Positions 12,314 to 30,193 of a DNA stretch of 30,738 nucleotides are shown here, piece by piece. The DNA is from Gaiellaceae bacterium (GTDB lineage Bacteria > Actinomycetota > Thermoleophilia > Gaiellales > Gaiellaceae): positions 1-30,738 of the forward strand of contig JBPCJB010000125.1 of the NCBI GenBank assembly GCA_051005735.1, written 5' to 3'. The notes beneath the pieces are model-generated. The model searched no databases and was not told the origin of the DNA. It was given only the letters and a program-made list of their open reading frames with translations. The translations under genes and the position numbers were made by a program. How positions within the stretch are numbered: the stretch's first letter is position 1; each line of letters begins with the position of its first letter.

Positions 12314-13537
12314 ATGCGTCGTCCCAAGCTCGTTCTCTCCATGCTCATGCTCGCCGGAGCGATCGCGACCGGCGCGACCGCAGCCTCCGGCGCCGATCCG
12401 GGCATCTCCACGAAAACGATCCTGCTCGGCGGCACCTCGCCGCTCTCCGGCCCGGCCTCCGCCTACGCCTCGGTCGCGCGCGGCGCCGATGCCTACTTCA
12501 AGCACGTGAACGCGCGCGGCGGCGTCAACGGCCGGAGGATCGCCTACAAGTACGTCGACGACGCCTACAACCCGGCGCAGACGATCCAGGCGACCCGTCA
12601 GCTCGTGGAGCAGGACAAGGTCTTCGCCATCTTCAACTCGCTCGGAACCGAGCAGAACGTGGCGACGCGCGACTACCTGAACCAACTCCGGGTGCCGCAG
12701 CTCTTCGTCGCCTCCGGCGCGACCACGTTCGGGCGCGACCACAAGCGCTATCCCTACACGATCGGCTTCCAGCCGAGCTACCAGGCGGAAGGCTGGATCT
12801 ACGGCACCTATCTCGCGCGCACGAAGCCCGGCGCGAAGATCGCTGTCCTCTTCCAGAACGACGACTACGGCAAGGACCTGATGACCGGGCTGCGGCAGGG
12901 GATCGCGCGCTCGAAGGTGAGGATCGTCGCCGCCGAGGGCTACGAGGTGACGGCGACCGACGTCCAGTCGCAGATCGCGAAGCTGAAGGCCTCGGGCGCC
13001 ACGACGCTCGCGCTCTTCGCGACGCCGAAGTTCGCGATCCAGGGCTACGTGTTCGCAAACCGGCTCGGCTGGCGGCCGCTCGTCCTCAACAACGCCGTCT
13101 CGAGCGCTTCGAACATCATGACGCTCGCCTCCGAGGGGAACACGAATCGAACCGTGGAGAACTCGGTCTCGATCGTCTTCCTCAAGGATCCGACCGATCC
13201 GAAGTGGCGGAACGATTCCGCGATGAGGCTCTACCGCTCGATCATGGGCAGGTACGCGCGTGGCGCGAACGTTAGGGACGTCTACCACGTCTATGGAATG
13301 GCGGTCGCGCACGAGACCGCGCGGGTGCTGAGGGCGACGGGCAAGAACCCGACCCGGGCGGCGCTCCTCGCGCAGCTGCGGAAGCTGAACGACGCGTCGA
13401 ACCCCTTCCTGCTGCCCGGAATCGCGATCAAGACGAGCGGGACCGAGCGCTTCCCGATCGAGCAGGCGCTCCTCCAGCGGTGGTCAAAGGGCTCGTGGCA
13501 GAGCTTCGGCGGCCTCTGGGGCTACCGCGCCGGTTGA
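12314..13537 (+). CDS. livK: LIV-family ABC transporter substrate-binding protein (type 1 periplasmic binding fold)
   Basis: Signal peptide followed by PLSGPAS, VNARGGVNGRRI, DDAYNP and QNDDYG. AAGGAG lies upstream. The substrate cannot be determined from sequence. Confidence 0.88.
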   Translation: MRRPKLVLSMLMLAGAIATGATAASGADPGISTKTILLGGTSPLSGPASAYASVARGADAYFKHVNARGGVNGRRIAYKYVDDAYNPAQTIQATRQLVEQDKVFAIFNSLGTEQNVATRDYLNQLRVPQLFVASGATTFGRDHKRYPYTIGFQPSYQAEGWIYGTYLARTKPGAKIAVLFQNDDYGKDLMTGLRQGIARSKVRIVAAEGYEVTATDVQSQIAKLKASGATTLALFATPKFAIQGYVFANRLGWRPLVLNNAVSSASNIMTLASEGNTNRTVENSVSIVFLKDPTDPKWRNDSAMRLYRSIMGRYARGANVRDVYHVYGMAVAHETARVLRATGKNPTRAALLAQLRKLNDASNPFLLPGIAIKTSGTERFPIEQALLQRWSKGSWQSFGGLWGYRAG

Positions 13538-13608
13538 CGAACCCGTCTCCGGGGTCGAAGCCCGCGCGGCCTCGCGGCGCCCCAGGTGCCGTCTGCGAGG
13601 ATGGAGAC

Positions 13609-15966
13609 ATGTCACCGGCGGACCTCCTCGACGGGCCGCTCGACCAGCTGCTCGGCGCGGCCCGCGAGCGTCGCCGCGGTGACGGCCTCGTCACGTACTC
13701 GCCCAAGGTTTTCGTCCCGCTGACGACGCTTTGCCGCGACGTTTGCGGCTACTGCACCTTCGCGCGGCCGCCGCGGCGTGGCGAGCGGGCGTACCTGACC
13801 GAGGAAGAGGTGCTCGCGATCGCGCGGGCGGGCGCGGCGGCCGGTTGCACCGAGGCGCTCTTCACGCTCGGCGACAAGCCCGAGCTCCGCTACAAGGTCG
13901 CGCGCGAGGAGCTCCGCGCGCTCGGTTGCGCCACCACGATCGAGTACCTCGCGCGCGTGGCCAAGCTCGTGCTCGACGAGACGGGACTGCTCCCGCACCT
14001 GAACCCCGGCGTGATGACGCGCGCCGGGCTCGAGCTCCTGCGCCCGGTCTCCGCGTCGATGGGGATCATGCTCGAGACGACCGCCGAACGGCTCGGCGAG
14101 CGCGGCGGGCCGCACTGGGCCTCCCCGGACAAGCTGCCCGCGCGCCGGCTCGAGACGATCGAGCTTGCCGGCGAGCTCAGGATCCCCTTCACGAGCGGGA
14201 TCCTGATCGGGATCGGCGAAACGCGCGCGGAGCGGCTGGAAGCGCTCGGGGCCCTCGCCGAGCTGCACCGCCGCCACGGCCACCTCCAGGAGGTGATCGT
14301 CCAGAACTTCCGCGCCAAGCCGGGAACGCGGATGGCCGATCAGCCCGAGCCGTCGCTCGACGATCACCTCTGGACGATCGCGGCGGCGCGGCTCTTGCTC
14401 CCCGAAGACGTCTCGGTGCCGGCGCCGCCGAACCTCGCCTACGACGATTTCCCGCGCCTCCTCGATGCCGGAATCGACGACTGGGGCGGCGTCTCGCCGG
14501 TGACGATCGACCACGTCAATCCCGAGGCGCCCTGGCCGGAGCGGGACCGGCTCGCTGCGGCGACGCGCTCGCGCGGGCTCGAGCTCGCCCCGCGCCTGCC
14601 CGTCTACCCCGGCCACCTCAGCGCCGACTGGCTGGCGCCGCGCATCCTCACGCAGGCGCTCCGCAGCTCGGACTCGCTCGGGCTCGCCCGCGAGGACGGC
14701 TGGCATCCCGGCGAGCGCGGCCCGGTTCCGTTCACGATCGCGCGGGCTGCGCTCCCGCTCGGCACATCGGCCGAGCTGGGGGAGGAGGAGCTCGTGCGGC
14801 TCTTCCGCGCCCGCGGCGAGGAGCGGCAGCGCGTCTTCGCCGCCGCCGATCGGCTCCGGCGCGAGGTCTGCGGCGACGAGGTCAGCTACGTCGTCACCCG
14901 GAACATCCAGTACACGAACGTCTGCTACTTCCGCTGCGGCTTCTGCGCCTTCTCAAAGGGAAAGCTCGCGGCCAACCTGCGCGGCGCCCCCTATCTCGTC
15001 CCGCTCGACGAGATCGTCCGCCGCTGCCGCGAGGCCTGGGCGCGAGGCGCGACCGAGGTCTGCCTCCAGGGGGGGATCCATCCGGCCTTCACAGGCGACT
15101 ACTACGCCGAGGTCGTCGCCGCGATCCGGGCCGAGCTCCCGGATCTGCACATCCATGCCTTCTCGGCGCTCGAGCTCTGGCAGGGCGCCGCCACGCTCGC
15201 CGTCCCGCTCGAGGACTACCTCGAGCGCCTGCGCGGGCTCGGGCTCGGCTCGCTCCCGGGCACGGCCGCCGAGATCCTGGACGACGAGGTGCGCGCGCTC
15301 ATCTGCCCCGACAAGGTCTCGACCGCGCAGTGGCTCGCCGTCCACGAGGCGGCGCACCGGGTCGGCCTGCGCTCGAACGTGACGATCATGTTCGGGCACG
15401 TTGAGTCGCCGCGCCATTGGGCGCGACACCCGCTCAGGGCACGCGAGCAGCAGGAGCGCTCCGGCGGCTTCACCGAGCTCGTGCCGCTGCCGTTCGTGCA
15501 CATGGAGGCCCCGATCTGGCTGAAGGGAACGGCGCGCTCGGGGCCGACCTTCGGCGAGACGCTCCTCCTGCACGCCGTTGCGCGACTCGCTCTGCACCCG
15601 CACATCACGAACATCCAGGCGTCCTGGGTGAAGCTCGGGCCTGCCGGAGTTGCCGCTGCGCTCGCCGCGGGCGTCAACGATCTCGGCGGGACGCTGATGA
15701 ACGAGTCGATCTCGCGCTCGGCCGGCTCGGCGCACGGGCAGGAGATGTCTCCCGAGGAGATCGAGGCGCTGATCCGAGCGAGCGACCGGATCCCACGCCA
15801 GCGGACGACGCTCTACGAAGACGCACCGGCTGAGCGACGAGCCGCCTCGTTCGGCGCCCCGCCCCTCGCCGAGCCGCTCAACCCGCACGTTCGGGATGCC
15901 CGCCTGCAGGCGCCGCCGAGACTCGTCCGGCCCGGCCTCCTGGCGGGTGCGGCAAACCGGCGCTAA
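13609..15966 (+). CDS. fbiC: Bifunctional FO synthase (CofG-CofH fusion, two radical SAM domains) for coenzyme F420 biosynthesis
   Basis: Two CxxxCxxC motifs (CRDVCGYC, CYFRCGFC). The CofG half has LFTLGDKPE, PHLNPG and DDWGGVSP; the CofH half has EVCLQGGIHP, SLPGTAAEIL and NDLGGTLMNESISR. GGAG precedes ATG 13609. Confidence 0.93.
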   Translation: MSPADLLDGPLDQLLGAARERRRGDGLVTYSPKVFVPLTTLCRDVCGYCTFARPPRRGERAYLTEEEVLAIARAGAAAGCTEALFTLGDKPELRYKVAREELRALGCATTIEYLARVAKLVLDETGLLPHLNPGVMTRAGLELLRPVSASMGIMLETTAERLGERGGPHWASPDKLPARRLETIELAGELRIPFTSGILIGIGETRAERLEALGALAELHRRHGHLQEVIVQNFRAKPGTRMADQPEPSLDDHLWTIAAARLLLPEDVSVPAPPNLAYDDFPRLLDAGIDDWGGVSPVTIDHVNPEAPWPERDRLAAATRSRGLELAPRLPVYPGHLSADWLAPRILTQALRSSDSLGLAREDGWHPGERGPVPFTIARAALPLGTSAELGEEELVRLFRARGEERQRVFAAADRLRREVCGDEVSYVVTRNIQYTNVCYFRCGFCAFSKGKLAANLRGAPYLVPLDEIVRRCREAWARGATEVCLQGGIHPAFTGDYYAEVVAAIRAELPDLHIHAFSALELWQGAATLAVPLEDYLERLRGLGLGSLPGTAAEILDDEVRALICPDKVSTAQWLAVHEAAHRVGLRSNVTIMFGHVESPRHWARHPLRAREQQERSGGFTELVPLPFVHMEAPIWLKGTARSGPTFGETLLLHAVARLALHPHITNIQASWVKLGPAGVAAALAAGVNDLGGTLMNESISRSAGSAHGQEMSPEEIEALIRASDRIPRQRTTLYEDAPAERRAASFGAPPLAEPLNPHVRDARLQAPPRLVRPGLLAGAANRR

Positions 15967-16036
15967 GCTGAGAGCTTCGGCGGCGGAACGACAAGGGGGA
16001 GTGGCGATCGTGACGGACAACGGCTACAACGTGCGC

Positions 16037-18481
16037 GTGCGCGCCTACATTCTTCGACCCGTCTTGCGACTGGCCACGGTTCTGGTCGCGGTCGGCGTCC
16101 TGCTTTCGCTGCCCGCGTCGGGCGCGGATGCGGCGTTCCCCGGCACGAACGGGCTGGTCGCGTTCGAGCGCGGGAGCGACATCTACACGGTTACGACCGG
16201 AAGCACGCCGGTCGTCAGCTCGACGGCTCTTGTCGCGAATGCCTCGGATCCCTCCTGGTCGCCGAACGGCAACAAGCTCGCGTTCACCCAGAGCGGCTCG
16301 GTCAAGGTCCTAACCGTCGATGGCGGCGCGATCCAGACTCTCGACACCGGTTCTGCGCCGACTTGGTCGCCCGACGGGACGATGATCGCCTATGAGCGCT
16401 CGACCGATATCTACGTGATCTCCTCGAGCGGCGGCACCGGTCGCAACCTCTCGAACAGCGGCGGCTCCGCGGCGGACGACGACCCCGCGTGGTCGCCCGA
16501 CGGTGACTCGATCGCCTTCACGCGCACGACGACGAACGCGGACATCTACACGATGGACGCGCCGTCGGATCCGGCCACCGGCGGCGGCGGCAACCAGGCG
16601 CAGCTGACGACCGCGACGACGAACGAGACGCAGCCGTCGTACGACCCGGACGGTGGCCTGATCGCCTTCGCCTCGGATCGGATCGGCGCCGCGCAGCGGC
16701 AGATCTACACGATCTCGAGCTCGGGAGGCACCGAGACGCGGGTGTCGAGCTCGACCGCCGACGACTACGCTCCAGCGCACTCCCCCGACGGGACGAGGAT
16801 CGCATTCGCTCGCACCGGGGCCGGGATCTATACCATCGGCACGGGCGAGACGCCGCTCACCTCCGGCGGCGCCGATACGAATCCCGACTGGCAGCCTGCG
16901 GCGCCGACGAACACCACCCTGCCCGTGATCACCGGCAACTTCTCCGACGGCGGGACAATGTTCGCCTCGACCGGCACGTTCGCGTCAGCTTCGAGCTATG
17001 CCTATCGCTGGCTGCGCTGCGACGAGGACGGCGAGGACTGCGAGGAGATCACTGGCGCCGACTCGTCCACCTATCGTGGCGCGAGTCAGGACGTCGGCAA
17101 GCGGCTGCGCGTCCGCGTCACGGCGACGAGCAGCAGCGGCTCGAGCACGGCGACGTCCGATCCGACGCCGCTGATCGCCGGCCCCGAGCCCCAGAACGTG
17201 ACTCCGCCGAAGGTGATCGTGCCCGGGACGACCGGCATTCCGATGGCCGGCGTCGCGCAGTCCTCCTCCGTCGGCTTCTGGACGGGCGAGGGCCCGATCA
17301 CCTACACCTATCAGTGGAAGAAGTGCCAGCCGAAGGACGGCCCCTGCTACCGGATCCTCGAGACGAGAGCGCAGTCTTCGACCTTCGTGCCGACGGCCGA
17401 CCTGGTGGGCTGGTCGCTCCGCGTGGAGGTCACAGCCACGAACTCGGCCGGCTCCTCGACCGTGCAGTCCGAGTCGACGCCGCTCGTGATCGCAAACGCG
17501 CCTCTGAACCTCGTCCGCCCGAGGATCTCCATCTCGACCGCGAACCCGACGGTCGGGCAGGAGCTCACCGCCGACACCGGCAGCTTCACGGGCTTCGGGC
17601 TCAGCTTCACCTACCAGTGGCGGCGCTGCGATCCCCCGGGCACGCTCCCGAGCTGCGTGCCGATCCCGGGCGCGACGACGAGCCGCTACACGACCACCGA
17701 GGCCGACCTTGGAGTGACGCTGCGGGTCTACGTGACCGCGACCGGGCTCGGCGGCTCGACGACGCAGTTCAGCGACCACACCTTCCCGACGATTCCGGCG
17801 CCGCGGCTCGCGCCCTCGCTGACGACGGCGCCGCTGATCACCGGCGATGCGGCGCCCGGCGAGTCGCTCACGGCCACGCGAGGCGCGTGGTCCGGCTTCG
17901 CGCCGCTGCGCTACTCCTCGGCGTGGCAGCGCTGCGACGCGACCGTCACGGTCTGCCGCACGCGGGCCGTCAAGGGCCTCGTCTACAAGGTGACGGCGGC
18001 CGATCTCGGCTTCCGGATCCGCTTCATCGTCGTCGCCCGGAACTCGGTCGGGAACGCGCGCGCGAACTCCGATGCGACGGAGCCGGTCGTGCTCGGCCCG
18101 CGGAAGCCGAAGGGCCGGACGATCGTCGGCACCAATCGCTCCGAGTACATCGCGGGTGGGGGTGGGGACGACGTCCTGAGCGGCCGCGGGGGCAATGACA
18201 CGATCAGGGGTGGCGGAGGCGACGACCGGCTGAACGGCGGCGACGGCAACGATTACATCGACGGTGGCGCCGATGTCGATCGGATCGACGGTGGCGCGGG
18301 GAGCGACACGATTCTCGTCGCCGACGGCGAGATCGACACCGTCCAGTGCGGTGCCGGAAACGACCGCGTGATCGCCGATGCGTCCGACCTGCTCTCGGGC
18401 TGCGAGATGATCAGCTTCCCGCCGACGACACCGGTGCCCGGTCCGGAGCCGCCCGACCCGCCGGATCCGCCGACTCCATAG
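16037..18481 (+). CDS. Secreted multidomain protein: signal peptide, PD40/TolB-like beta-propeller, four Cys-paired Ig-like repeats, RTX Ca-binding repeats, Pro-rich tail
   Basis: Signal peptide ...LPASGADA/AFPG; repeated (P)xWSPDGxxIAF; four roughly 95-100 aa units with Y(Q/R)WxxC-x(4-7)-C...G..LR(V/F).V.A; GGxGxDxLx nonamers; PEPPDPPDPPTP end. The start codon is uncertain (GTG at 16001, 16031 or 16037). Confidence 0.85.
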   Translation: MRAYILRPVLRLATVLVAVGVLLSLPASGADAAFPGTNGLVAFERGSDIYTVTTGSTPVVSSTALVANASDPSWSPNGNKLAFTQSGSVKVLTVDGGAIQTLDTGSAPTWSPDGTMIAYERSTDIYVISSSGGTGRNLSNSGGSAADDDPAWSPDGDSIAFTRTTTNADIYTMDAPSDPATGGGGNQAQLTTATTNETQPSYDPDGGLIAFASDRIGAAQRQIYTISSSGGTETRVSSSTADDYAPAHSPDGTRIAFARTGAGIYTIGTGETPLTSGGADTNPDWQPAAPTNTTLPVITGNFSDGGTMFASTGTFASASSYAYRWLRCDEDGEDCEEITGADSSTYRGASQDVGKRLRVRVTATSSSGSSTATSDPTPLIAGPEPQNVTPPKVIVPGTTGIPMAGVAQSSSVGFWTGEGPITYTYQWKKCQPKDGPCYRILETRAQSSTFVPTADLVGWSLRVEVTATNSAGSSTVQSESTPLVIANAPLNLVRPRISISTANPTVGQELTADTGSFTGFGLSFTYQWRRCDPPGTLPSCVPIPGATTSRYTTTEADLGVTLRVYVTATGLGGSTTQFSDHTFPTIPAPRLAPSLTTAPLITGDAAPGESLTATRGAWSGFAPLRYSSAWQRCDATVTVCRTRAVKGLVYKVTAADLGFRIRFIVVARNSVGNARANSDATEPVVLGPRKPKGRTIVGTNRSEYIAGGGGDDVLSGRGGNDTIRGGGGDDRLNGGDGNDYIDGGADVDRIDGGAGSDTILVADGEIDTVQCGAGNDRVIADASDLLSGCEMISFPPTTPVPGPEPPDPPDPPTP

Positions 18482-19087: not shown

Positions 19088-19689
19088 GGGGGTTCCAGCT
19101 CGGCGAAGCCCTGCTCGAAGACCGCGTCGGGCTGGGCGCCGAGGACGAGCAGGTGCCGGTCGAGGAGGAAGGCAGGCACGCCGGTCGCTCCGATCGAAAT
19201 CGCCTGACGCGTAGAGCTCTCGATCCGCTCACGGTAGCCGTCTCCAGCGAGGACCGACTCGACCTCGTCGTCCGGGAGCCCGAGCTCCGCGGCCAGGGCA
19301 CGCAGGACGGCGGAGTCGCCGAGATCCTGCGCCTCGGCCCAGTAGGCGTCCATCAGCCGGTCGTGGGTCTCCTCGTGACGACCGAGCTCGCGCGCCAGCT
19401 CCGTGAGCCGCAGCGCCTTCATCGTGTTCGGCACCAGGTCGGGGTGCGGGTTGTACTCGAGCCCGCGGGCCGCGAAGGTCGCCCTCATGCGCTCTGTCAT
19501 CCCTTCGCCGTAGCGCGCCAGCAGCTCCGCTCGTGGCATGCCCTCGGGCGGGTATTCCGGGTGGAGATCGAACGGGAGCCAGACGATGGTGGCGCCGAAC
19601 CGGCGACCGAGCCAGGTGGCGGTTGGTTGCGCCACGCGGCAGAAGGGTCAGATGTAGTCGCTCCAGATCGCGACGGTCCGCTCGCTCAT
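19084..19689 (-). CDS. DsbA/FrnE-family thiol oxidoreductase selenoprotein with a UxxC active site (UGA 19650-19648)
   Basis: ATG at 19689 overlaps the hisA stop (ATGA). It reads MSERTVAIWSDYI-TGA-PFCRVA..., in frame with ORF 19084..19635, which has WLPFDLHPE, PNTMKALRL, LMDAYW and the cis-Pro motif GATGVPAF. The UGA occupies the first Cys of the family motif SDxxCPFC. Confidence 0.88.
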
Positions 19690-20408
19690 ACCTCGAGGCT
19701 AACCGCCTCGGCGAGCCTGAAACGGCCCAGCCAGAGCGCGCTCCCGGCCACCGCTCCTTCGCAACCAAGCTTCCGGATCGCGCGGAGATCGTCGAGCGAG
19801 GCGATCCCGCCGGCCGCGAGCACCGGTAGCTGCGAGACCTCGAGCACCGTCGCGAGCAGCTCGAGGTCGGGTCCGGCGAGCGAGCCGTCGCGGCTCGTGC
19901 TCGTGGCGAGCAGGCGGCTCACGCCCGCGACGCGGCATTGCTCGGCGAGCTCCGCCGCGGTTGCGGTCGAGCGCGCGGCCCAGCCCTGGACTGCGACGCG
20001 CTCGTCTCGCACGTCGACGGCCACGACGATCCGGTCGCCGAAGCGCTCCACGGCCCGATCGAGGAAGCTCGGCTCGAGCGCCGCGGTGCCGACGAGCACC
20101 CGGGCCGCCCCGGCAGCGAGGGCCCCGGCGATCGCCTCGAGCGTCCGGTAGCCGCCCCCGACCTGGATCGGCGCCTCCGTTGCGGCGGTCACAGTGCGCA
20201 CGAGCTCGGCGGTGGGGAAGCCGCGGAAGGCGCCGTCCAGGTCGACGAGATGGAGCCACGACGCCCCTTCGGATGCGAAGCGCGCCGCCGCGACCGCGGG
20301 ATCGCCGCCCTCGACGGTGACGCGCGCGGGATCGCCCTGCGCCAGCCGGACGACCCTGCCGGCGAGGACGTCGATTGCGGGATAGACGGTGAAACTCTGT
20401 GATTGCAC
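19686..20408 (-). CDS. hisA: ProFAR isomerase
   Basis: YPAIDV, HLVDLDGA, QVGGG, VGTAA, RDGSLAGPD, AAGGI and GSAL. Confidence 0.92.
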   Translation of the reverse strand: MQSQSFTVYPAIDVLAGRVVRLAQGDPARVTVEGGDPAVAAARFASEGASWLHLVDLDGAFRGFPTAELVRTVTAATEAPIQVGGGYRTLEAIAGALAAGAARVLVGTAALEPSFLDRAVERFGDRIVVAVDVRDERVAVQGWAARSTATAAELAEQCRVAGVSRLLATSTSRDGSLAGPDLELLATVLEVSQLPVLAAGGIASLDDLRAIRKLGCEGAVAGSALWLGRFRLAEAVSLEV

Positions 20409-20430: not shown

Positions 20431-20748
20431 ATGGCGCGCGAGACTGTGGATTCTGCTCGTCCGGTCGAGCGGCTGCCGGGCCTGGACGACCTCGCCGCGG
20501 CGATCGTCAGCCTGCGCTCGACCGACGAGCTGAAGCGATTCCTGCGCGACCTCTGCACGCTGCCCGAGCTCGAGGCGCTCACCCACCGCTGGCAGACGGC
20601 CCGCCTGCTAGAGGAGGGGGTGCCGTATCTCGAGATCGCCGGCCGCGTGCCGACGAGCACGGCCACGGTCACTCGCGTCGCCCAATGGCTGCGGCACGGC
20701 ACCGGCGGCTACCGGATCGCGCTCGACCGCGCGCGCGGGCGGAAGTAG
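20431..20748 (+). CDS. TrpR-like YerC/YecD transcriptional regulator (HisR-like)
   Basis: 105 aa with FLRDLCTLPELEAL..RWQTARLL..G.PY.EIA....TSTATVTRVAQWL.HG.GGY, the YerC/YecD TrpR-like HTH pattern. It is the first gene of the his operon. Confidence 0.88.
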   Translation: MARETVDSARPVERLPGLDDLAAAIVSLRSTDELKRFLRDLCTLPELEALTHRWQTARLLEEGVPYLEIAGRVPTSTATVTRVAQWLRHGTGGYRIALDRARGRK

Positions 20749-21638
20749 TGCCGCCCGCCCGCTTCACGCGTGCCGGCGCAAACGGCCGCCTGACGCTCGC
20801 CGTCCCCTCCAAGGGCAGGATGTCGGAGCCCGCACTGCGCCTCTGCGCGGACGCGGGCCTCGGCTTCGAGGCGACCGAGCGCGCCCTGCTCGTGCCGTGC
20901 TCGAACGCGCCCGTCGACCTCCTCCTCGTCCGCCCGAGCGACATCCCGGAGTACGTGCAGGACGGTGTCGTCCACCTCGGGATCACCGGCGCCAACCTCG
21001 TTGTCGAGGCCGATGCCGACGTGCTCACGCTCGCCGAGCTCGGCTTCGCGCGCTGCACGCTCCAGGCGGCGGTACCGGAGGACTCCGTCCATCAGGATCT
21101 CGCCTCGCTCGCCGGCCTCCGTGTCGCGACCGCCTACCCGGTGACGACGCGAGCCTGCCTGGAGCGGCTCGGGATCTCCGCCGAGCTGGTGCCCGTCTCG
21201 GGCTCCGTCGAGGCCGCGCCGCGCCTCGGGCTCTCCGACGCGATCGTCGATCTCGTCTCGACCGGCTCGACGGCGAGCGCGAACGGCCTCCGCCTCGTCG
21301 GCGCCCTGCTCGAGTCGCAGGCCGTGCTCGTCGGCAGCGAGGCCGCGGTGGCCGAGCAGCGCGAGCTCGTGGAGCGCTTCGAGTTGATGCTCGCCGGGGT
21401 CGTGGCCGCTCGCCGGCGCCGCTACCTGATGATGAACGCGCCGGCGTCGGCTCTGCCCGAGCTCGAGCGCCTGCTGCCGAGCATGGGCGCACCCTCTGTG
21501 CTCAAGCTCGCCGCAGAGGGACAGATCGCGATCCACGCCGCCGTGGAAGCGGACGAGCTCTGGAACCTGCTCGCGCCGCTCAAGGCCGCCGGCGCCTCGT
21601 CGATCCTCGTCCTGCCGGTGGAGCGGCTTGTTCCGTGA
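20748..21638 (+). CDS. hisG: ATP phosphoribosyltransferase, long form with C-terminal regulatory domain
   Basis: The GTG overlaps the regulator stop. Contains LAVPSKGR, VRPSDIPEYV, GSVEAAP, DAIVDLVSTGST and C-terminal LKAAGASSILVLPVE. Confidence 0.93.
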   Translation: MPPARFTRAGANGRLTLAVPSKGRMSEPALRLCADAGLGFEATERALLVPCSNAPVDLLLVRPSDIPEYVQDGVVHLGITGANLVVEADADVLTLAELGFARCTLQAAVPEDSVHQDLASLAGLRVATAYPVTTRACLERLGISAELVPVSGSVEAAPRLGLSDAIVDLVSTGSTASANGLRLVGALLESQAVLVGSEAAVAEQRELVERFELMLAGVVAARRRRYLMMNAPASALPELERLLPSMGAPSVLKLAAEGQIAIHAAVEADELWNLLAPLKAAGASSILVLPVERLVP

Positions 21639-22786
21639 GGGGGACTGGGCTGGAGGACGTGCTGCCCCGCGTCGGCGAGATCGTGGCCGACGTCCGCGAC
21701 CGCGGCGACGCGGCGCTGCTCGAGTGGACGGCGCGGCTGGACGGGCCGTCCGAGGCAGAGCAGTGGCTGCGAGTCGCGGCCGAGGCGCTCGACGCCGCGA
21801 GCGTCGAGGACGACGTGCTCGAGGCGGTTCGCTCGCTCGCCGCGGCCGTGCGCGAGGTGGCAGTCTCGCAGCGGCCGGCGGACACTCGCGTCGAGGCGGT
21901 ACCCGGGATCGCCACCGAGCGGCGCTGGCGCCCGCTCTCATCGGTCGGCGTCTACGTTCCCGGCGGTCGAGCGGCGTATCCGTCCTCGCTCGTGATGGCG
22001 GCCGTCCCCGCGCAGGTCGCCGGCGTGGGTCGGATCGTCGTCGTCACGCCGCGTCCGGCCGAGGTGACGCTGGCGGTGGCGCGCGAGCTCGGGCTCGACG
22101 AGATCTATGCGGTCGGCGGCGCCCAGGCGATCGCCGCGCTCGCCTATGGAACCGAGACGATCGCGCCGGTGGACAAGATCGTCGGGCCGGGCAACCGCTA
22201 CGTGACCGCGGCGAAGCTGCTCGTCTCGAGCCGGGTCGGGATCGACCTCCCGGCCGGGCCGAGCGAGGTCGTCCTGATCGCCGATGCGAGCGCCGATCCC
22301 GCCCAGTGCGCCGCCGACCTGCTCGCCCAGGCCGAGCACGGGTCGGACAGCGAGGCGATCCTGCTCAGCCTCGAGCCGGATCTCTCGGCTGCGGTGCGTG
22401 CCCTCGTCGGCGGGCAGCACAACGTCTCTGTTGACGACGTGGCCTCTCTGGACGAGGCGCTGGCTCGCTCGGACGAGTACGCGCCAGAGCACCTGGAGCT
22501 CTGGCTCGCCGACTCCGAGCGAGCCGTCGAGCGGGTACGGAACGCCGGCACTGTCTTCGTCCGGACGTCAGCCGTCGTCGGCGACTACGCCTCCGGCGCG
22601 ACCCACTTGCTCCCGACCGGCGGGCTCGCGCGCGGGGCCGGCGGGCTCGGACTGGAGAGCTTCCTCAAGCCCCTTCAGATCGTGCGCGCGGACGCAGCGG
22701 GACTCGAGCGGGCGCGCGAGATCGCCCTGCCTCTCGCCCGGGTCGAGGGCCTGCCGCTGCACGCTGCTGCGTTGGCGTTGCGATGA
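21635..22786 (+). CDS. hisD: Histidinol dehydrogenase
   Basis: The GTG at 21635 overlaps the hisG stop. Contains VGVYVPGG, YPSS, GGAQAIAALAYGT, VGPGNRYV, AGPSE, DLLAQAEH, APEHL and GDY..G..H.LPT. Confidence 0.93.
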   Translation: MRGTGLEDVLPRVGEIVADVRDRGDAALLEWTARLDGPSEAEQWLRVAAEALDAASVEDDVLEAVRSLAAAVREVAVSQRPADTRVEAVPGIATERRWRPLSSVGVYVPGGRAAYPSSLVMAAVPAQVAGVGRIVVVTPRPAEVTLAVARELGLDEIYAVGGAQAIAALAYGTETIAPVDKIVGPGNRYVTAAKLLVSSRVGIDLPAGPSEVVLIADASADPAQCAADLLAQAEHGSDSEAILLSLEPDLSAAVRALVGGQHNVSVDDVASLDEALARSDEYAPEHLELWLADSERAVERVRNAGTVFVRTSAVVGDYASGATHLLPTGGLARGAGGLGLESFLKPLQIVRADAAGLERAREIALPLARVEGLPLHAAALALR

Positions 22787-24360
22787 CGCTCGTCGCACGG
22801 CCCCTGCCGAGCGGCTTCCGGCCCTACGCCTGGGCGCCGAGCTCCGCCGAGCTGGCAGCCCGGCACGGGCTCCGGCCCGAGCAGATCCTGCGCTTCGACC
22901 AGAACACGCCGCCTCTCCCCGGAGTTCCGAGGGTGCCGCTCGCGCCGAGCTTCGCGCGGCTGAACGAGTATCCCGACGGGACGTACCGAGAGTTGCGCGT
23001 GGCGGCCGCGTCGTATTGCGGCGTCGAGGCGACCCAGGTCGTGGTCGGAGCGGGCGCCGATGAGCTGATCGCTCTCTGCGCCCGGACGTATCTCGCGCCT
23101 GGGCTGCGCGCCGCCGTCTCGCCGCCGACCTACGGCCTCTACCGGATCGTCACGGAGCTCGAGGGTGCCGAGGTCGTCGAGGAGCCGGACGGCTCGGCCG
23201 TGATCTGGGTCTGCAATCCGAACAATCCGACCGGGGAGCTGCGCGAGCCCGCCGAGCTCGCAGCGCTCGCGCGCGTCCATCCGCAGGCGATCGTCGTCGT
23301 CGACGAGGCGTACTTCGAGTTCGCGGACGTCACCTGCGTGCCGCTACTCGCCGAGCAGCCGAACGTGATCGTGCTGCGCACGCTCTCGAAGGCCTTCGGC
23401 CTCGCCTCGCTGCGCGTCGGCTACGCAATCGCCGCTCCGGCTGTCGCGGCCGAGCTCGAGCTCCGACGAGCGCCGGCGAGCGTCTCCGGGCCGGCCGCGC
23501 GAATCGCGGCGGCGGCGCTCCGCGAGCCGCGGATCGATGTGGCGGACACGGTCGCAGAGCGCGAGCGCGTCCGCGGGGCGCTCGTTGGCGCCGGCCACGA
23601 CTGCCCGGAGTCGGCGGGCAACTTCGTCTTCGTCCGGACGGCCGAGCCACTCGGCGAGCAGCTCGAGCGGCAGGGATTGGTGGTTCGGCGCTTTCTCGAG
23701 GGAATCCGGATCACGCTGCGGCGACCGAGGGAGAACGACGTCCTGCTCGCCGCGCTCGGCGCCGTTGCGGGCGATCTTCCTCGAGCGCGCGAGTCGTATG
23801 TCGCCCGGGTCTCGACCGAGACGTCGCTCCGAGTTTCGCTCGAGCTCGACGGGATCGGGCGCGCGCGGGTCGAGACCGGGATCGGCTTTCTCGACCACCT
23901 GCTCACCCTCTGGGCGTTCCACGGCGGTTTCGACCTGGAGCTGCTCGCCGGCGGCGACCTCGCGGTCGACGAGCATCACACCGTCGAGGACGTGCTCGCC
24001 GCGCTCGGCGACGCGGTCTCGGAGGCACTCGGCGCCCGCGAGGGGATCGCGCGCTACGGCAGCGCGATCGTGCCGATGGACGAGGCGCGAGCCTCCGCGG
24101 GCGTCGATCTCGTCCGACGTCCGCATGCGGAGATCGAGCTTCGGTTCAGCGGCGAGCGGGTCGGTGGGCTCGCGGTGACGCTGCTTTCGCATGCGTTTGA
24201 GCGGTTCGCGATCCAAGGCGGTTTCACGGTCCACCTCACGGCTGCGGGCGCCGACGACCACCACGTCGCCGAGGCCGCGTGCAAGGCGCTCGGGCAGGCG
24301 CTCCGCCAGGCGTGCGCCGCGGCCGGCGAGGGCGTGCGTTCGACGAAGGGACTTGCATGA
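22783..24360 (+). CDS. hisC-hisB: Fusion of histidinol-phosphate aminotransferase (HisC) and imidazoleglycerol-phosphate dehydratase (HisB/IGPD)
   Basis: A single 525 aa ORF. The N-part has [17 protein letters not shown] and [16 protein letters not shown] (PLP Lys). The C-part, from about 23790, has [28 protein letters not shown] and DDHHVAEA. Confidence 0.9.
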
Positions 24361-24950
24361 AGGTCGTGCTCGCGGACTACGGCGCCGGCAACACGAGAAG
24401 CGTCTGCGCGGCGCTCGCGCGCGCCGGCGCGGCGCCCGTTGTCTCGACCGCTGCCGCCGAGATCCGCGAGGCGCCGCTCGTCGTGATCGCGGGAGTCGGG
24501 CACGTCGCGAGCGCCGCGCGCGGGCTAGCGCCTGTGGCGGAAGCGCTGCGGGAGCGCGTGGCCGCAAGCCGGCCGATCTTCGGCATCTGCGTCGGCCTGC
24601 AGCTCCTCTTCGAGGAGAGCGAGGAGGGCGGTCGCGGTCTCGGCCTGCTCAGGGGGCCGGTGCGACGGTTACGCGCGGGCCGGATCCCGCACATGGGTTG
24701 GAACACGCTTGCCCCGACTCGCGCCTCGCGCCTCCTGGAAGGCCTCGAGGAGGCGGACGTCTACTTCGCGCACAGCTTTGCCGTCGAGCCGGCGCCCGAT
24801 GTCGCGATCGCCTACGTCGAGCACGGGGGCGCAGTCGTCGCCGCTGTCGAGTCGGACGAGCTCGCAGGTGTCCAGTTCCATCCCGAGCGGAGCGGCGCGG
24901 CTGGCGCGCGCCTGCTCGAGAACGCGCTGGCGTGGTCAAGAAGCGCCTGA
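24357..24950 (+). CDS. hisH: Imidazole glycerol phosphate synthase glutamine amidotransferase subunit
   Basis: ATG at 24357. Contains DYGAGN, GICVG (nucleophile Cys), PHMGWN, YFAHS and QFHPE. Confidence 0.93.
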
Positions 24951-25672
24951 TCCCCTGTCTCGACGTCGCCCGCGGCCGCGTGGTCAAGGGCATCCGCTTC
25001 AAGTCGTTGCGAGATGTCGGCGATCCCGTCGAGCTCGCGGAGCGCTACTCCGAGCTCGGCGCGGACGAGCTCGTCTTCCTCGACATCGCCGCCAGCATCG
25101 AAGGACGCGGCCCGATCCTCGAGCTCGTCGAGCGGGCGGCCGAGCGCCTGACCGTGCCCTTCACCGTCGGCGGCGGAATCTCCGGGCTCGAGGATGCTCG
25201 CGCGCTGCTCCGCTCGGGCGCGGACAAGGTGGCGCTCAATCGCGCGGCGGTCGACGACCCCGCGCTGCTCTCGACGCTCGCTGACGAGTTCGGCGCCCAG
25301 GCGGTGGTCTGCGCGCTCGACTCGCGCGGCGGTGAGGTCGTCACGCACGGCGGGCGGAACGGGCGCGGGCTCGACTCGGTCGCATGGGCCCGCGAGGCCG
25401 TTCGGCGCGGCGCCGGCGAGCTCCTCCTCACCTCGATCGACGCGGACGGGACGCGGAACGGCTACGACCTCGAGCTGACGGGCCGGGTCGCGACGGCCGT
25501 GAGCGTCCCGGTGATCGCCTCGGGCGGGGCGGGTCAGGCGTCGCATCTGGCCGACGCCTTCGCTGCGGGCGCCGACGCGGCGCTCGTCGCGTCGATCGTC
25601 CACGAGCGCCCGGAGCGGGTTCGCGAGCTCAAGGCCGAGCTGAAGGAGGCGGGATGGCCGATCCGGATCTGA
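24932..25672 (+). CDS. hisF: Imidazole glycerol phosphate synthase cyclase subunit
   Basis: GTG at 24932 gives [39 protein letters not shown] and IASGGAG. Confidence 0.94.
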
Positions 25673-26199
25673 CGCCGGCGATCGTTCAGGACGCCGACTC
25701 GGGGCGCGTGCTGATGCTCGCCTGGATGGACGAGGAGGCGCTGCGGCTGACGCGGGAGACCGGCGAAGCCTGGTTCTGGAGCCGCTCCCGGCAGGAGCTC
25801 TGGCAGAAAGGCGCGACCTCGGGCAACACGCTGGCTGTCGAGGAGCTGCGGGACGACTGCGACGGCGATGCGGTCCTGCTCCGCGTCCGACCTGCCGGCC
25901 CGACCTGCCACACGGGCGCGGTCTCCTGCTTCGCTCCCTGGCTCTGGCGGAGGATCAAGGAGCGCGAGCTCGAGCGGCGGGATGGCTCGTACGTCGTCTC
26001 GCTGCTCGACGACCCGATGCTCGCCGCGCGCAAGGTGGGGGAGGAGGGTGTCGAAGTCGCGCTCGCGGGCGCGGCCGAATCGGATCAGCGGCTCGTCGAG
26101 GAGGTCGCCGACCTCTGGTTCCACAGCTACGCGCTCCTGGCTGCGCGGGGCCTCGATCCGGCGCAGGTCGAGGACGAGCTCGACCGCCGCGCCGACTGA
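25654..26199 (+). CDS. hisIE: Bifunctional phosphoribosyl-AMP cyclohydrolase / phosphoribosyl-ATP pyrophosphatase
   Basis: ATG at 25654 after AAGGAGG. The HisI part has [22 protein letters not shown] and TCHTG..SCF; the HisE part has KVGEEGVE and EEVADLWFH. Confidence 0.93.
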
Positions 26200-26381: not shown

Positions 26382-27641
26382 TCAGCGGTCGCGCGACAAC
26401 AGATCCTCGACCGTCTCGCGACGCAGGATCTCCCGCGCCTCTCCGTCGAGCACGAGCACCGCCGCCGGCCGCGGCACACCGTTGTAGGTCGACGCCATCC
26501 CGAGCGTGTAGGCGCCGGTCGCTGGCACGGCGAGCAGATCGCCGCGCCGGGGCTCGGGCAGGAGGACGCTCTCGATCAGGACGTCGCCCGACTCGCAGTG
26601 CTTGCCCGCGATCGTGAACGGCGCCTCGGCAGCTTGCTCGTCCGCCCGGTTCGCGAGCAGCGCCGCGTAGCGGGCGCCGTAGAGCTGAGGGCGCGGGTTG
26701 TCGGACATGCCTCCGTCGATCGCGACGTAGCTCCTGTCGCCGGCGCGCTTGCTCGCCCCGACCGTGTAGAGCGTGCAGGCTGCCGCGCCGACGAGCGACC
26801 GTCCCGGCTCGAGGATCAGGCGCGGCTCCGGTAGCTCGCGGCGCGCCCACGCTCGCCGGACCTCAATGACGATCTCGCCCACGAGCTCCTCGACAGGCGG
26901 CTCGGGCTCGTCGAGCACATACCGGATCCCGAAGCCGCCGCCGATATCGACGACAGCCGCAGTCCAGGAGACCTCGTCCCGCGCCCGAGCCGCGAAATCC
27001 GCGAGCAGCTCGACGGCCTGCAGGTGCGCCCGCCCGTCCAGGAGCTGCGAGCCGACGTGGACGTGCAGTCCCGCGACCTCGATCCCGGTCGCGCACGCGC
27101 GCCGGATCGCGTCCAGCGCGTCGGCTGCGTCGAGCCCGAACTTCGAGCCGCGATGACCGGTGCGGATCGCCTCGTGTGTCTCGGCCTCGACGCCGGGAGT
27201 CACCCGCACGAGCGCCCGTCGCACACCGGCAGCGGCGGCCCGCTCGGGCTCGTCGAGTGCGTCCAGGACGACGAGCGCGCTCACCTCGGCCGCGGCGCGC
27301 AGCTCCGCGTCCGACTTGTTGTTGCCGTGAAAGAGGATCCGCTCGCCGTCGATTCCCGCGGCGCGAGCGAACGCCAGCTCTCCCAGCGTGGACACGTCCG
27401 CGCCCACGCCCTCCTCCGCGAGCAGCCGCAGCAGCGAGACGTTCGCGAAAGCCTTGGTTCCGTAGACGACGAGCGCCTCGGGCGCCGCCTCGCGGAAGAG
27501 CCGCGCCCGTGCTCGGAGCGAGCGCTCGCAGTAGACGACGAGCGGCGTCCCGAAGCGCTCTGCCAGCTCGCTTGCCGCGATCCCACCGACCGTCAGCTCG
27601 CCGTTCTCGAGGCTGGCCGTTTCCGGGAACAGTGCTAGCAT
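26382..27641 (-). CDS. lysA: Diaminopimelate decarboxylase
   Basis: TPLVVY, YGTKAF (PLP Lys), HGNNKS, HVHVGSQ, EPGRS, DGGMSDNPRPQLY, GKHCESGD and MASTYN. Confidence 0.94.
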   Translation of the reverse strand: MLALFPETASLENGELTVGGIAASELAERFGTPLVVYCERSLRARARLFREAAPEALVVYGTKAFANVSLLRLLAEEGVGADVSTLGELAFARAAGIDGERILFHGNNKSDAELRAAAEVSALVVLDALDEPERAAAAGVRRALVRVTPGVEAETHEAIRTGHRGSKFGLDAADALDAIRRACATGIEVAGLHVHVGSQLLDGRAHLQAVELLADFAARARDEVSWTAAVVDIGGGFGIRYVLDEPEPPVEELVGEIVIEVRRAWARRELPEPRLILEPGRSLVGAAACTLYTVGASKRAGDRSYVAIDGGMSDNPRPQLYGARYAALLANRADEQAAEAPFTIAGKHCESGDVLIESVLLPEPRRGDLLAVPATGAYTLGMASTYNGVPRPAAVLVLDGEAREILRRETVEDLLSRDR

Positions 27642-27710: not shown

Positions 27711-27737
27711 GGCCTATCTCGCGAGAGGCTTTTTTGT
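27711..27737 (+). terminator. Intrinsic terminator-like hairpin with U-tract inside the leuS 5' leader
   Basis: GGCC-TA-TCT-CGCG-AGA-GGC-TTTTTT: about 7 bp of stem with a 2-nt bulge, followed by six T (27730-27735), 22 nt before the leuS ATG. Confidence 0.7.
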
Positions 27738-27757
27738 ACCCCGAGGTAGGTGAACCG

Positions 27758-30193
27758 ATGACCGAGCGATACGACCCGAGGGTGATCGAGGCGAAGTGGC
27801 AGCGCGTCTGGGAGGACGAGCGCGCGTTCGAGGTCTCGAACGAGCCCGGCCCGAACGAGGCGGCGAAGCCGAAGTCGTACGTGCTCGAGCAGCTCCCCTA
27901 TCCCTCGGGTTCGCTGCACATGGGACACATGCTGGTGTACACGATCGGCGATGTCGTGACGCACTTCCGCAGGCGCAACGGCTACCGCGTGCTCCATCCG
28001 ATGGGATTCGACGCGTTCGGCCTGCCGGCGGAGAACGCCGCGATCCGCGAGGGCGGTCATCCGCGAGCGATGACCGAGCGCAACATCGCGGCGATCAAGG
28101 AATCGATGCGCCGGATCGGCTGGGCGATCGACTGGTCGCGCGAGCTCTCGACGCACGATCCCGACTACTACCGCTGGCAGCAGTGGCAGTTCCTACGCTT
28201 CCTCGAGCGGGGGCTCGCCTATCGGAAGGACGCGCCGGTCAAGTGGTGTCCCGTCGACCAGACCGTGCTCGCGAATGAGCAGGTGCACGACGGGCGCTGC
28301 GAGCGCTGCGGCTCGGAGGTCGAGTCGCGGCTGATGGAGCAGTGGTTCTTCCGCACGACCGACTACGCGCAGGCGCTTCTCGACGACCTCGAGACGGTCG
28401 ACTGGCCCGAGCCGATCAAGGCCCGGCAGCGCAACTGGATCGGCCGCTCCGAGGGCGCCGAGATCGTCTTCCGGATCGAGGAGCTCGATGTCGACGTGCC
28501 GGTGTTCACGACCCGGCCCGACACGCTCTTCGGCGCGACCTTCTTCGCGCTGGCGCCCGAACACGAGCTCGTCGAGCGGATCGCCGCGCGCGCCGCCAAC
28601 GGCAGCGAGATTCGCGACTACGTGCGGCGGGCTTCCGCCAAGAAAACGGAAGAGCGCGCCGCGGCCGAGGAGAAGACCGGGGTCGACACGGGCCTTCACG
28701 TCGCCAATCCCGTCAACGGAGAGCGGCTGCCGATCTACGTCGCGGACTACGTGCTGACCGACTACGGCACCGGCGCGGTCATGGCCGTGCCGGCGCACGA
28801 CGCCCGCGATCACGCGTTTGCTCAGGCGTTCGGGCTGCCCGTGCGCGTCGTCGTGCGGTCCGGCGAGGGCGAGACGGAGGAGGCGCCGTACCTCGGCTCC
28901 GGCGAGGGCTACGTGCTCGTCGAATCAGGCGACCTGGACGGGCTACCGGCGCCGGAGGGCGGGCGGCGGATCGTGGAGCGACTGGAGGCGGAGGGAAGGG
29001 GCCGCTTCACTGTCAACTTTCGCCTCCGCGACTGGGGCTTCTCACGTCAGCGCTACTGGGGCTGCCCGATTCCGATCGTCTACTGCGGGTCCTGCGGGAT
29101 CGTTTCCGTGTCGGACGACGAGCTGCCGGTCGTGCTGCCGGAGATCGAGGACTACAAGCCGCAGGGCCGCCCGCCGCTCGCCGGGGCCGAGGACTGGGTG
29201 AACGTGCCATGCCCGTCGTGCGCCAGGCCCGCGCAGCGGGAGACCGAGACGATGGACACCTTCGTCGACTCGTCCTGGTACTTCCTGCGCTACTGCGACC
29301 CGCACAACGATCGCGCGCCGTTCGACCGCGCCATCGTCGACTACTGGAATCCCGTCGACCTCTATATCGGCGGCGTCGACCACGCCACGATGCACATGAT
29401 CTATGCGCGCTTCTGGATGAAGGCGCTGAACGACATGGGTTTCATCGGCTTCCGCGAGCCGTTCGCCAGCTTCTATTCGAACGGCTGGGTCACGCTCGGG
29501 AGGACGAAGATGGCGAAGCGCGCCGGCAACATCGTCGGCCCCGACGCGTTCGTCGAGCGCCACGGCGCCGACACGGTTCGCCTCTACATCCTCTTCATCG
29601 GGCCGGCCGACCAGGACATGGAGTGGACAGAGGAAGGCGTCGAGGGGATGGGTCGCTTCGTGCGGCGGCTCTGGCGCGTCGTGCGCGAGGTCGCCGAGCG
29701 CGCACCTGCGTCCGGCGAGGCGACGAGCCCGCTTTCCCGCAAGGCGCACGCGACGATCGCGAAGGCGACCGACGATATCGGCCGGCGCTACGCGTTCAAC
29801 ACCGCGATCTCGGCCGTGATGGAGCTCGTGAACGAGTTGTCGCGCGACCCGGCTGCGGTCGACGCGCGCTTTGCCGCCGAGACGGCCGTCTCGCTGATCC
29901 AGCCGTACGCGCCGCACGTCGCCGAGGAGCTGTGGGGGGTGCTCGGCCGCGACCGCCTCTGGGAGGCGCCCTGGCCCGCGGCCGACGCGGCGATGCTCGA
30001 GCGCGAGACGGTCGAGCTCGTCGTGCAGGTGAACGGAAAGGTGCGGGACCGGTTGCAGGTGGCAGCCGCGACACCCGAGGAGGAGCTCGTCTCGCTCGGC
30101 CGAGCGTCCGAGCGGGTGCAGGCGCACCTGAAAGGCGGCGAGCCCAGGAAGACGATCGTCGTTCCGGGGAAGCTCGTCAACTTCGTCGTCTGA
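27758..30193 (+). CDS. leuS: Leucine--tRNA ligase
   Basis: ATG at 27758 after GAGGTAGGTG. Contains PYPSG.LHMGH (HIGH), GFDAFGLPAENAA, the CP1 editing motif TTRPDTLFG, GTGAVMAVPAHD, RQRYWGCPIP, MDTFVDSS, a KMSKS-equivalent KMAKR and C-terminal VQVNGKVR. Confidence 0.95.
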   Translation: MTERYDPRVIEAKWQRVWEDERAFEVSNEPGPNEAAKPKSYVLEQLPYPSGSLHMGHMLVYTIGDVVTHFRRRNGYRVLHPMGFDAFGLPAENAAIREGGHPRAMTERNIAAIKESMRRIGWAIDWSRELSTHDPDYYRWQQWQFLRFLERGLAYRKDAPVKWCPVDQTVLANEQVHDGRCERCGSEVESRLMEQWFFRTTDYAQALLDDLETVDWPEPIKARQRNWIGRSEGAEIVFRIEELDVDVPVFTTRPDTLFGATFFALAPEHELVERIAARAANGSEIRDYVRRASAKKTEERAAAEEKTGVDTGLHVANPVNGERLPIYVADYVLTDYGTGAVMAVPAHDARDHAFAQAFGLPVRVVVRSGEGETEEAPYLGSGEGYVLVESGDLDGLPAPEGGRRIVERLEAEGRGRFTVNFRLRDWGFSRQRYWGCPIPIVYCGSCGIVSVSDDELPVVLPEIEDYKPQGRPPLAGAEDWVNVPCPSCARPAQRETETMDTFVDSSWYFLRYCDPHNDRAPFDRAIVDYWNPVDLYIGGVDHATMHMIYARFWMKALNDMGFIGFREPFASFYSNGWVTLGRTKMAKRAGNIVGPDAFVERHGADTVRLYILFIGPADQDMEWTEEGVEGMGRFVRRLWRVVREVAERAPASGEATSPLSRKAHATIAKATDDIGRRYAFNTAISAVMELVNELSRDPAAVDARFAAETAVSLIQPYAPHVAEELWGVLGRDRLWEAPWPAADAAMLERETVELVVQVNGKVRDRLQVAAATPEEELVSLGRASERVQAHLKGGEPRKTIVVPGKLVNFVV

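Follow-up and report, generated by a model that had tools for sequence, protein, structure and literature searches.

A HisC-HisB gene fusion in the histidine operon of Gaiellales and its predicted bifunctional product

The histidine biosynthesis pathway is a textbook case for gene fusions, and the catalogue named in the reviews and papers on the subject, hisNB, hisIE, hisHF/HIS7 and HIS4 (Fani 2007; Del Duca 2021; Witek 2024), has been stable for years. We describe here a gene, hisCB, that matches none of these enzyme pairs. It was found in a stretch of 30,738 nucleotides from a Gaiellaceae bacterium (assembly GCA_051005735.1, contig JBPCJB010000125.1), referred to below as the window, and it joins a histidinol-phosphate aminotransferase (HisC) to an imidazoleglycerol-phosphate dehydratase (IGPD, the dehydratase of HisB). 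IGPD yields imidazole-acetol phosphate, which is the substrate of HisC, and the claim of the initial annotation of this DNA that two consecutive pathway steps are joined is thus borne out. The list of known fusions given there (HisNB, HisIE and HisHF/HisIED) also agrees with the published reviews. A hisC-hisB fusion is absent from the three publications cited above, and we found no description of a HisC-IGPD fusion in the literature searched, although few subscription journals were covered and absence is not proven. The architecture can already be seen in databases, where automatic annotation has given it generic or compound names.

Several described systems offer a comparison. HisNB, known from Enterobacteria and others, carries an N-terminal HAD histidinol-phosphatase and a C-terminal IGPD; as in hisCB, a second histidine enzyme is attached to the outward-facing N-terminus of IGPD, the origin lies in the fusion of neighbouring operon genes (in hisCB, probably so), and the HisN domain must sit outside the IGPD cage, as HisC would in hisCB. 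The partner in HisNB, however, is the phosphatase of step 8, which is not consecutive with IGPD, whereas the partner in hisCB is an aminotransferase predicted to use the IGPD product directly. HisIE, HIS7 (HisHF) and HIS4 (HisIED) resemble hisCB in fusing successive histidine enzymes, and have been discussed as aiding co-expression or channelling, but the enzymes differ from those of hisCB. HisC-IGPD open reading frames (ORFs) of marine Alphaproteobacteria and Bdellovibrionota have the same domain order and a short linker and lie within a his operon; these are of independent origin, with about 30% identity to the hisCB protein in the HisC domain and about 41% in the IGPD domain. Finally, the stand-alone structures of HisC (Thermotoga maritima 1H1C, Escherichia coli 1FG3) and IGPD (6FWH, 4LOM) match the corresponding half of hisCB from end to end, and the catalytic residues are shared. 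Foldseek fold matches of our structural model were to HisC and IGPD only and, unlike hisCB, no solved chain among them spans both domains.

The fused gene and its two domains

The gene and its parts, as read from the ORF, the Pfam matches and an AlphaFold2 model, are as follows.

22783..24360, plus strand: hisCB, fused histidinol-phosphate aminotransferase / imidazoleglycerol-phosphate dehydratase gene, 525 amino acids (aa), protein P0001
22783..23757, plus strand: HisC-type class-II pyridoxal phosphate (PLP) aminotransferase domain, aa 1-325 (PF00155)
23758..23790, plus strand: inter-domain linker, aa 326-336, about 11 residues (AlphaFold2 model)
23791..24357, plus strand: IGPD (HisB dehydratase) domain, aa 337-525 (PF00475)

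The 525 codons of the gene form one ORF that no stop interrupts, in agreement with the initial annotation. Pfam recognises Aminotran_1_2 (138 bits, aa 54-324) and IGPD (166 bits, aa 365-507). Both halves align nearly end to end with solved proteins and neither is therefore truncated: aa 62-325 align with residues 52-331 of the 335-aa T. maritima HisC, with a Foldseek template-modelling score (TMt) of about 0.8 against solved HisC structures, and aa 335-524 align with residues 3-195 of the 197-aa IGPD 6fwh, with 48% identity and a TMt of 0.94. The complete aminotransferase and the complete IGPD with both HH motifs that had been claimed for this gene are therefore present. The match to PF00475 lies far above its cut-off (166 bits versus 27) and covers profile positions 1-144 of 144, whereas the NCBIfam HisB equivalog cut-off is missed (best model NF002111, 203.6 bits versus 231). 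Judged on these matches, the IGPD domain is divergent but complete.

Active-site residues were examined in an alignment of 62 fused sequences of 30-90% identity, in which the catalytic residues vary little or not at all in either domain. In the IGPD domain all eight Mn-ligand positions, taken from the Medicago IGPD (PMC10978614), are filled (H372, H398, H399, E402, H470, H493, H494 and E497), and these are invariant or at least 90% conserved across the alignment. The HisC domain contains the PLP lysine (SK203AFG), the NPNNPTG motif and D174-E-A-Y177, and K203, D174, Y177, R302 and R309 are conserved, as is the NPNNPTG motif.

In the AlphaFold2 model the last HisC helix comprises residues 315-324 and the first IGPD strand residues 337-343, which leaves a real linker of about 11 residues (326-336). 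The linker is thus short, as initially noted, but the 'LLAALG' stretch that had been assigned to it belongs to the last HisC helix. The predicted local distance difference test score (pLDDT) is about 80 in the block 331-340. In the relatives from Gaiellales the linker varies from about 8 to 45 residues and is rich in proline and alanine, with an unconserved sequence, and yet the reading frame is always kept.

Conservation, origins and loss of the fusion

The genome from which the window is taken is a metagenome-assembled genome (MAG) in 309 contigs with a completeness of 80%, and an indel or base error in such a fragmented assembly might have removed a hisC stop and a hisB start; a few relatives (G053, G013 and G030) are indeed frameshifted at or near the gene. 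Against this, about 79 of the 121 genomes sampled from the order have a full-length fused match (query start at or before 35, end at or after 511, no stop), with identities down to 42%. Because so many genomes of the order conserve the uninterrupted ORF, the fusion is not an artefact, and where the initial annotation named a stop/start at the junction in close relatives as grounds for refuting it, these genomes have the ORF without a stop. They are spread over four of the five families of the order (f1, f2, f3 and f5), and about a dozen further genomes gave partial matches that span the junction, at contig ends or with frameshifts; in the fifth family, f4, no canonical IGPD match was found in the same sample. 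The fusion is also carried by over 120 independent clusters of proteins drawn from NCBI, JGI, ENA and Logan, and the variable linker in a constant frame also speaks against an error. The artefact explanation is effectively refuted, and we give it next to no chance. The other way in which the single ORF might mislead is that it yields two proteins, with HisC and IGPD freed by internal initiation or by proteolysis in the linker. The variable, proline- and alanine-rich linkers of the relatives would suit such a reading, and an AGGGA precedes the in-frame codons TTG23677 and GTG23680. These two (codons 299-300) are, however, the only in-frame ATG, GTG or TTG codons within 23600-23950 and sit 35 codons inside the C-terminal part of the HisC domain, so that the scan of this interval found no conventional restart at the hisC/hisB junction. 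As the linker of the window's gene is only about 11 aa long and AlphaFold2 packs the two domains confidently, separate products seem very improbable, and we retain the reading of hisCB as one fused protein.

The same picture was obtained from proteins. Without exception, the best 120 homologues from a set of 5.8 billion clustered proteins are PF00155 plus PF00475 fusions with 71-90% identity, and apart from two longer calls they are 520-529 aa in length; homologues of this length number in the hundreds, and the NCBI names attached to fused homologues include Gaiellaceae bacterium and Gaiella. At least 51 of the top 150 representatives of clusters at 50% identity are complete fusions, and one cluster bears Ignavibacteriales names. 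Elsewhere in the class, outside this order, matches are confined to the IGPD part. They lie in frames of 200-235 aa, and no HisC occurs within 3 kb; one such genome (G157) has the order hisG-hisD-hisB-hisH-hisA-hisF. The fusion, which had been called unusual, is therefore not a rarity of one genome but is found order-wide, and the architecture survey shows that it recurs in Proteobacteria. Two of the genomes used are unpublished, one in the count of about 79 (G060) and one in a sample of 400 genomes of the phylum (G494), and no claim depends on either.

Separate trees were made for the two domains. In the IGPD tree 16 actinobacterial fusions form one clade with a Shimodaira-Hasegawa-like approximate likelihood ratio test (SH-aLRT) support of 99, and in the HisC tree the same 16 fusions together with two solo HisC genes form one clade, also with an SH-aLRT of 99. 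By both domain trees the actinobacterial fusion has a single origin. A second fused group consists of seven ORFs from Caulobacterales, Hellea, Robiginitomaculum, Ca. Puniceispirillum, a Brevundimonas MAG, an alphaproteobacterial MAG and a Pseudobdellovibrionaceae MAG; these lie in hisG-D-CB-H-A-F-IE operons, and in the IGPD tree the group falls among IGPDs of the HisNB type, far from the actinobacterial clade. On these trees the fusion arose at least twice independently, a conclusion forced by the starred branches.

A likely precursor is widespread. In about 17 other genomes of Actinomycetota hisC and hisB lie in one frame with a single stop between them, and in-frame hisC-stop-hisB loci (L044-L066 and other named loci) were found in Bacillota, Actinomycetota, Planctomycetota, Acidobacteriota, Gemmatimonadota and Pseudomonadota. 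In some of these the ATG of hisB directly follows the stop ('...LVKEEM*MDRYAEVTRKTGETD'). Read from their sequences, these loci represent a standing pre-fusion state, and because the two genes are in one frame and one stop apart, a single substitution in the stop would make the fusion. The fusion in the window probably arose in this way, when the hisC stop was lost in a forebear of the Gaiellales that had hisC and hisB adjacent and in frame, and would have been inherited vertically afterwards. The variable linker, rich in proline and alanine, fits a former intergenic or terminal stretch. Birth from adjacent genes would also mean that the domain order follows gene order, not reaction order.

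Among the 400 genomes of the phylum sample, two more (G586, locus L024, and G406, locus L025), from other classes, have a fused ORF in the same operon. They carry the whole operon, hisA | hisG-D-CB-H-F-IE, with a junction motif of the Gaiellaceae type (RDREDDDLLLEA) that matches one genus of this family, and both trees place them within the fused clade, together with genus g3 from the family of the window. This points to a candidate horizontal transfer or to misplacement of the genomes. A further case from the phylum search (G358) was dropped because its junction is masked (N).

The fusion can also be lost. Five Gaiellaceae genomes without the fused gene (G047, G027, G051, G067 and G106; L015, L016) gave no hisD match, although they are 95-98% complete, and no canonical IGPD was found in G047 and G027, the two searched with PF00475. 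These five are probable histidine auxotrophs. Because hisD was not found in these five genomes either, nor canonical IGPD in the two searched for it, the fused gene travels with the pathway. G047 and G027 retain a solo HisC of 316-320 aa which nests in the fused-gene clade and, by this position, is a fusion descendant without the IGPD half. We had considered these 'HisC-only' genes as the outcome of fission within the operon, but tblastn shows no his genes around them, and with hisD and canonical IGPD absent they are now read as remnants after pathway loss.

Other forms related to the fused gene were seen in the course of these searches. In one genome (G070) HisC is retained but IGPD is reduced to a stub (query 5-405). 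Longer metagenomic fusions are built on the same junction (P0160, P0185, P0190, P0238, P0171 and P0152), and take the forms HisC-HAD phosphatase-IGPD (742-859 aa), HisD-HisC-IGPD (1001 aa) and HisD-HisC-HAD-IGPD (1401 aa), the last with up to five pathway steps. The genome of the window (G000) also encodes a second IGPD-like paralogue of 162 aa (contig C256:4898-5383; L002:1453-1941, plus strand; PF00475, 91 bits), flanked by aroA (EPSP synthase) on one side and a RidA/L-PSP gene on the other. Counterparts with 53-63% identity to it were found in 16 of 19 further genomes that were sampled from the window's family, and none in the other families of the order. In this paralogue the first HH-x-x-E is deleted and the second HH reads QH, and just three of the eight Mn-ligand positions survive. 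The IGPD fold has probably been repurposed here or is non-catalytic, and we rejected the paralogue as a functional back-up on the count of metal ligands.

Operon context, predicted function and assembly

The fused gene lies between hisD and hisH in a tightly overlapping plus-strand operon with the order hisG-hisD-hisCB-hisH-hisF-hisIE, a synteny that recurs across the order. The other his genes of the window are the following.

19686..20408, minus strand: hisA, divergent, its position shared with relatives (PF00977, 219.9 bits)
about 20685..21638, plus strand: hisG, long form (HisG plus HisG_C, Pfam), start uncertain between ATG20685 and GTG20748
21635..22786, plus strand: hisD (PF00815, 411 bits)
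24357..24950, plus strand: hisH (GATase match)
24932..25672, plus strand: hisF (TIGR00735, 305 bits, cut-off 294.55)
25654..26199, plus strand: hisIE, itself a known fusion of PRA-CH and PRA-PH domains (NF002747, 199.6 bits, cut-off 187)

Overlaps of four nucleotides join hisG to hisD (GTGA, with GTG as the hisD start), hisD to hisCB (ATGA) and hisCB to hisH (ATGA), and such overlaps are typical of translational coupling. An Rfam scan of the whole window gave no family at gathering score, and so no T-box or his leader was detected. Elsewhere in the window, an 828-aa ORF at 13480-15966 (plus strand), with two radical-SAM stretches and CofH_C, resembles an F420 precursor synthase of the FbiC type (CofG/CofH fused), and an 861-aa ORF at 15896-18481 (plus strand), with PD40 beta-propeller repeats, Ig-like domains and C-terminal RTX calcium-binding repeats, is probably secreted or at the surface. 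Downstream of the operon lie a lysA-like gene of the Orn/DAP/Arg decarboxylase family (26382-27641, minus strand) and leuS (27734-30193, plus strand).

With both active sites conserved, the gene in the hisC-hisB slot of the operon and hisD likewise not found in five Gaiellaceae genomes without the fused gene, hisCB very probably encodes an enzyme that catalyses both step 6 and step 7 of the histidine pathway, and is a genuine, vertically inherited fusion. In step 6 the C-terminal IGPD would dehydrate imidazoleglycerol phosphate to imidazole-acetol phosphate, which in step 7 the N-terminal HisC would transaminate with glutamate to histidinol phosphate. A consequence of the fusion is the obligatory 1:1 co-expression of the two enzymes within a translationally coupled operon.

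Several observations weigh against the assignment of step 7 to the fused aminotransferase. Its domain misses the TIGR01141 hisC equivalog cut-off (225.6-228.2 bits versus 276.55) and is also matched by CobD-type decarboxylase models, at 193 bits. Elsewhere in the genome there is, in addition, a stand-alone paralogue of the HisC family:

G000 contig C287:5291-6391 (L120), plus strand: stand-alone HisC-family aminotransferase, 366 aa

This paralogue has 31% identity to the fused HisC domain and with 292.8 bits passes the TIGR01141 cut-off that the fused domain, at 228, fails. Perhaps, then, it is the paralogue that performs step 7, while the fused domain acts on another substrate or is structural; the solo HisC descendants retained by G047 and G027, which lack hisD and canonical IGPD, hint in the same direction, namely that the fused HisC domain may have a second use outside histidine synthesis. 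However, the best model for the paralogue is the Pat/Rv3772-like subfamily NF002878 (319.5 bits), and its neighbours are an MFS transporter gene and a LytR-family gene, with no his or aro genes adjoining. It is the fused domain that fills the hisC slot of the operon and keeps the PLP lysine, R302 and R309. R302 aligns with R322 of E. coli HisC, a ligand of the substrate phosphate, and R302 and R309 presumably bind this phosphate as in the E. coli structures; the match of R302 to R322 is suggestive only of a specificity for imidazole-acetol phosphate. We consider it improbable that the fused aminotransferase is not the pathway HisC. Because of its score below the equivalog cut-off we file the fused N-terminal domain as an aminotransferase of the HisC subfamily, and its putative role in step 7 is assigned from genomic context.

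The bifunctional reading raises the matter of assembly. IGPD is active only as a Mn-dependent 24-mer of 432 symmetry, with active sites shared between subunits, and HisC is active only as a dimer. The N-terminal sheet of IGPD faces outward (PMC10978614), and HisC would therefore decorate the exterior of the cage. Such an assembly would consist of an IGPD core of about 1.3 MDa with HisC domains on its surface, and the two active sites would be brought close to each other. The AlphaFold2 model of the two-domain chain has a pLDDT of 93.5 and a predicted template-modelling score (pTM) of 0.89, which exceeds the expectation for randomly placed domains of 330 and 190 residues and thus implies, for the model, a defined relative placement. 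Docking of HisC (aa 1-330) against IGPD (aa 335-525) as two chains gave weak support, with a score of 0.46 versus 0.00 for the best of three controls; the runs did not agree with one another (at least 0% of contacts shared), and the partner pLDDT is at least 87. In the calibration of this method 58 of 80 solved complexes and 2 of 110 mismatched pairs attained the mark, but scores of 0.60 or lower accounted for only 7 of the 80 solved complexes and for both of the mismatched pairs that passed. The docking result is counted neither for nor against a fixed HisC-IGPD interface. An octahedral IGPD 24-mer of about 1.3 MDa with a HisC dimer on each of its twelve two-fold axes, in which imidazole-acetol phosphate is channelled and not equilibrated with the bulk, is a speculative arrangement that we think rather unlikely as a whole; the channelling of imidazole-acetol phosphate by itself is possible. 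If the arrangement were true, the HisC-HAD-IGPD, HisD-HisC-IGPD and HisD-HisC-HAD-IGPD relatives would extend the cage to three to five steps.

Meaning of the fusion

The fusion is real, ancient and recurrent, and it is biochemically predictable unless the cage and channelling prove true. To the catalogue of histidine gene fusions hisCB adds a fusion of two truly consecutive steps that is fixed across an entire order of Actinomycetota abundant in soil. Current names, for instance 'aminotransferase class I/II-fold PLP-dependent enzyme', hide its IGPD activity and can create false hisB gaps when pathways are reconstructed for Gaiellales. With at least two origins, and with both a precursor state (in-frame hisC-stop-hisB) and a reversal state (solo HisC) visible, the family offers a clean natural experiment on how a gene fusion originates, is selected and is lost. 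A dimeric PLP enzyme forced onto a 24-mer cage would, in addition, be a model for substrate proximity and channelling and a possible scaffold for enzyme engineering.

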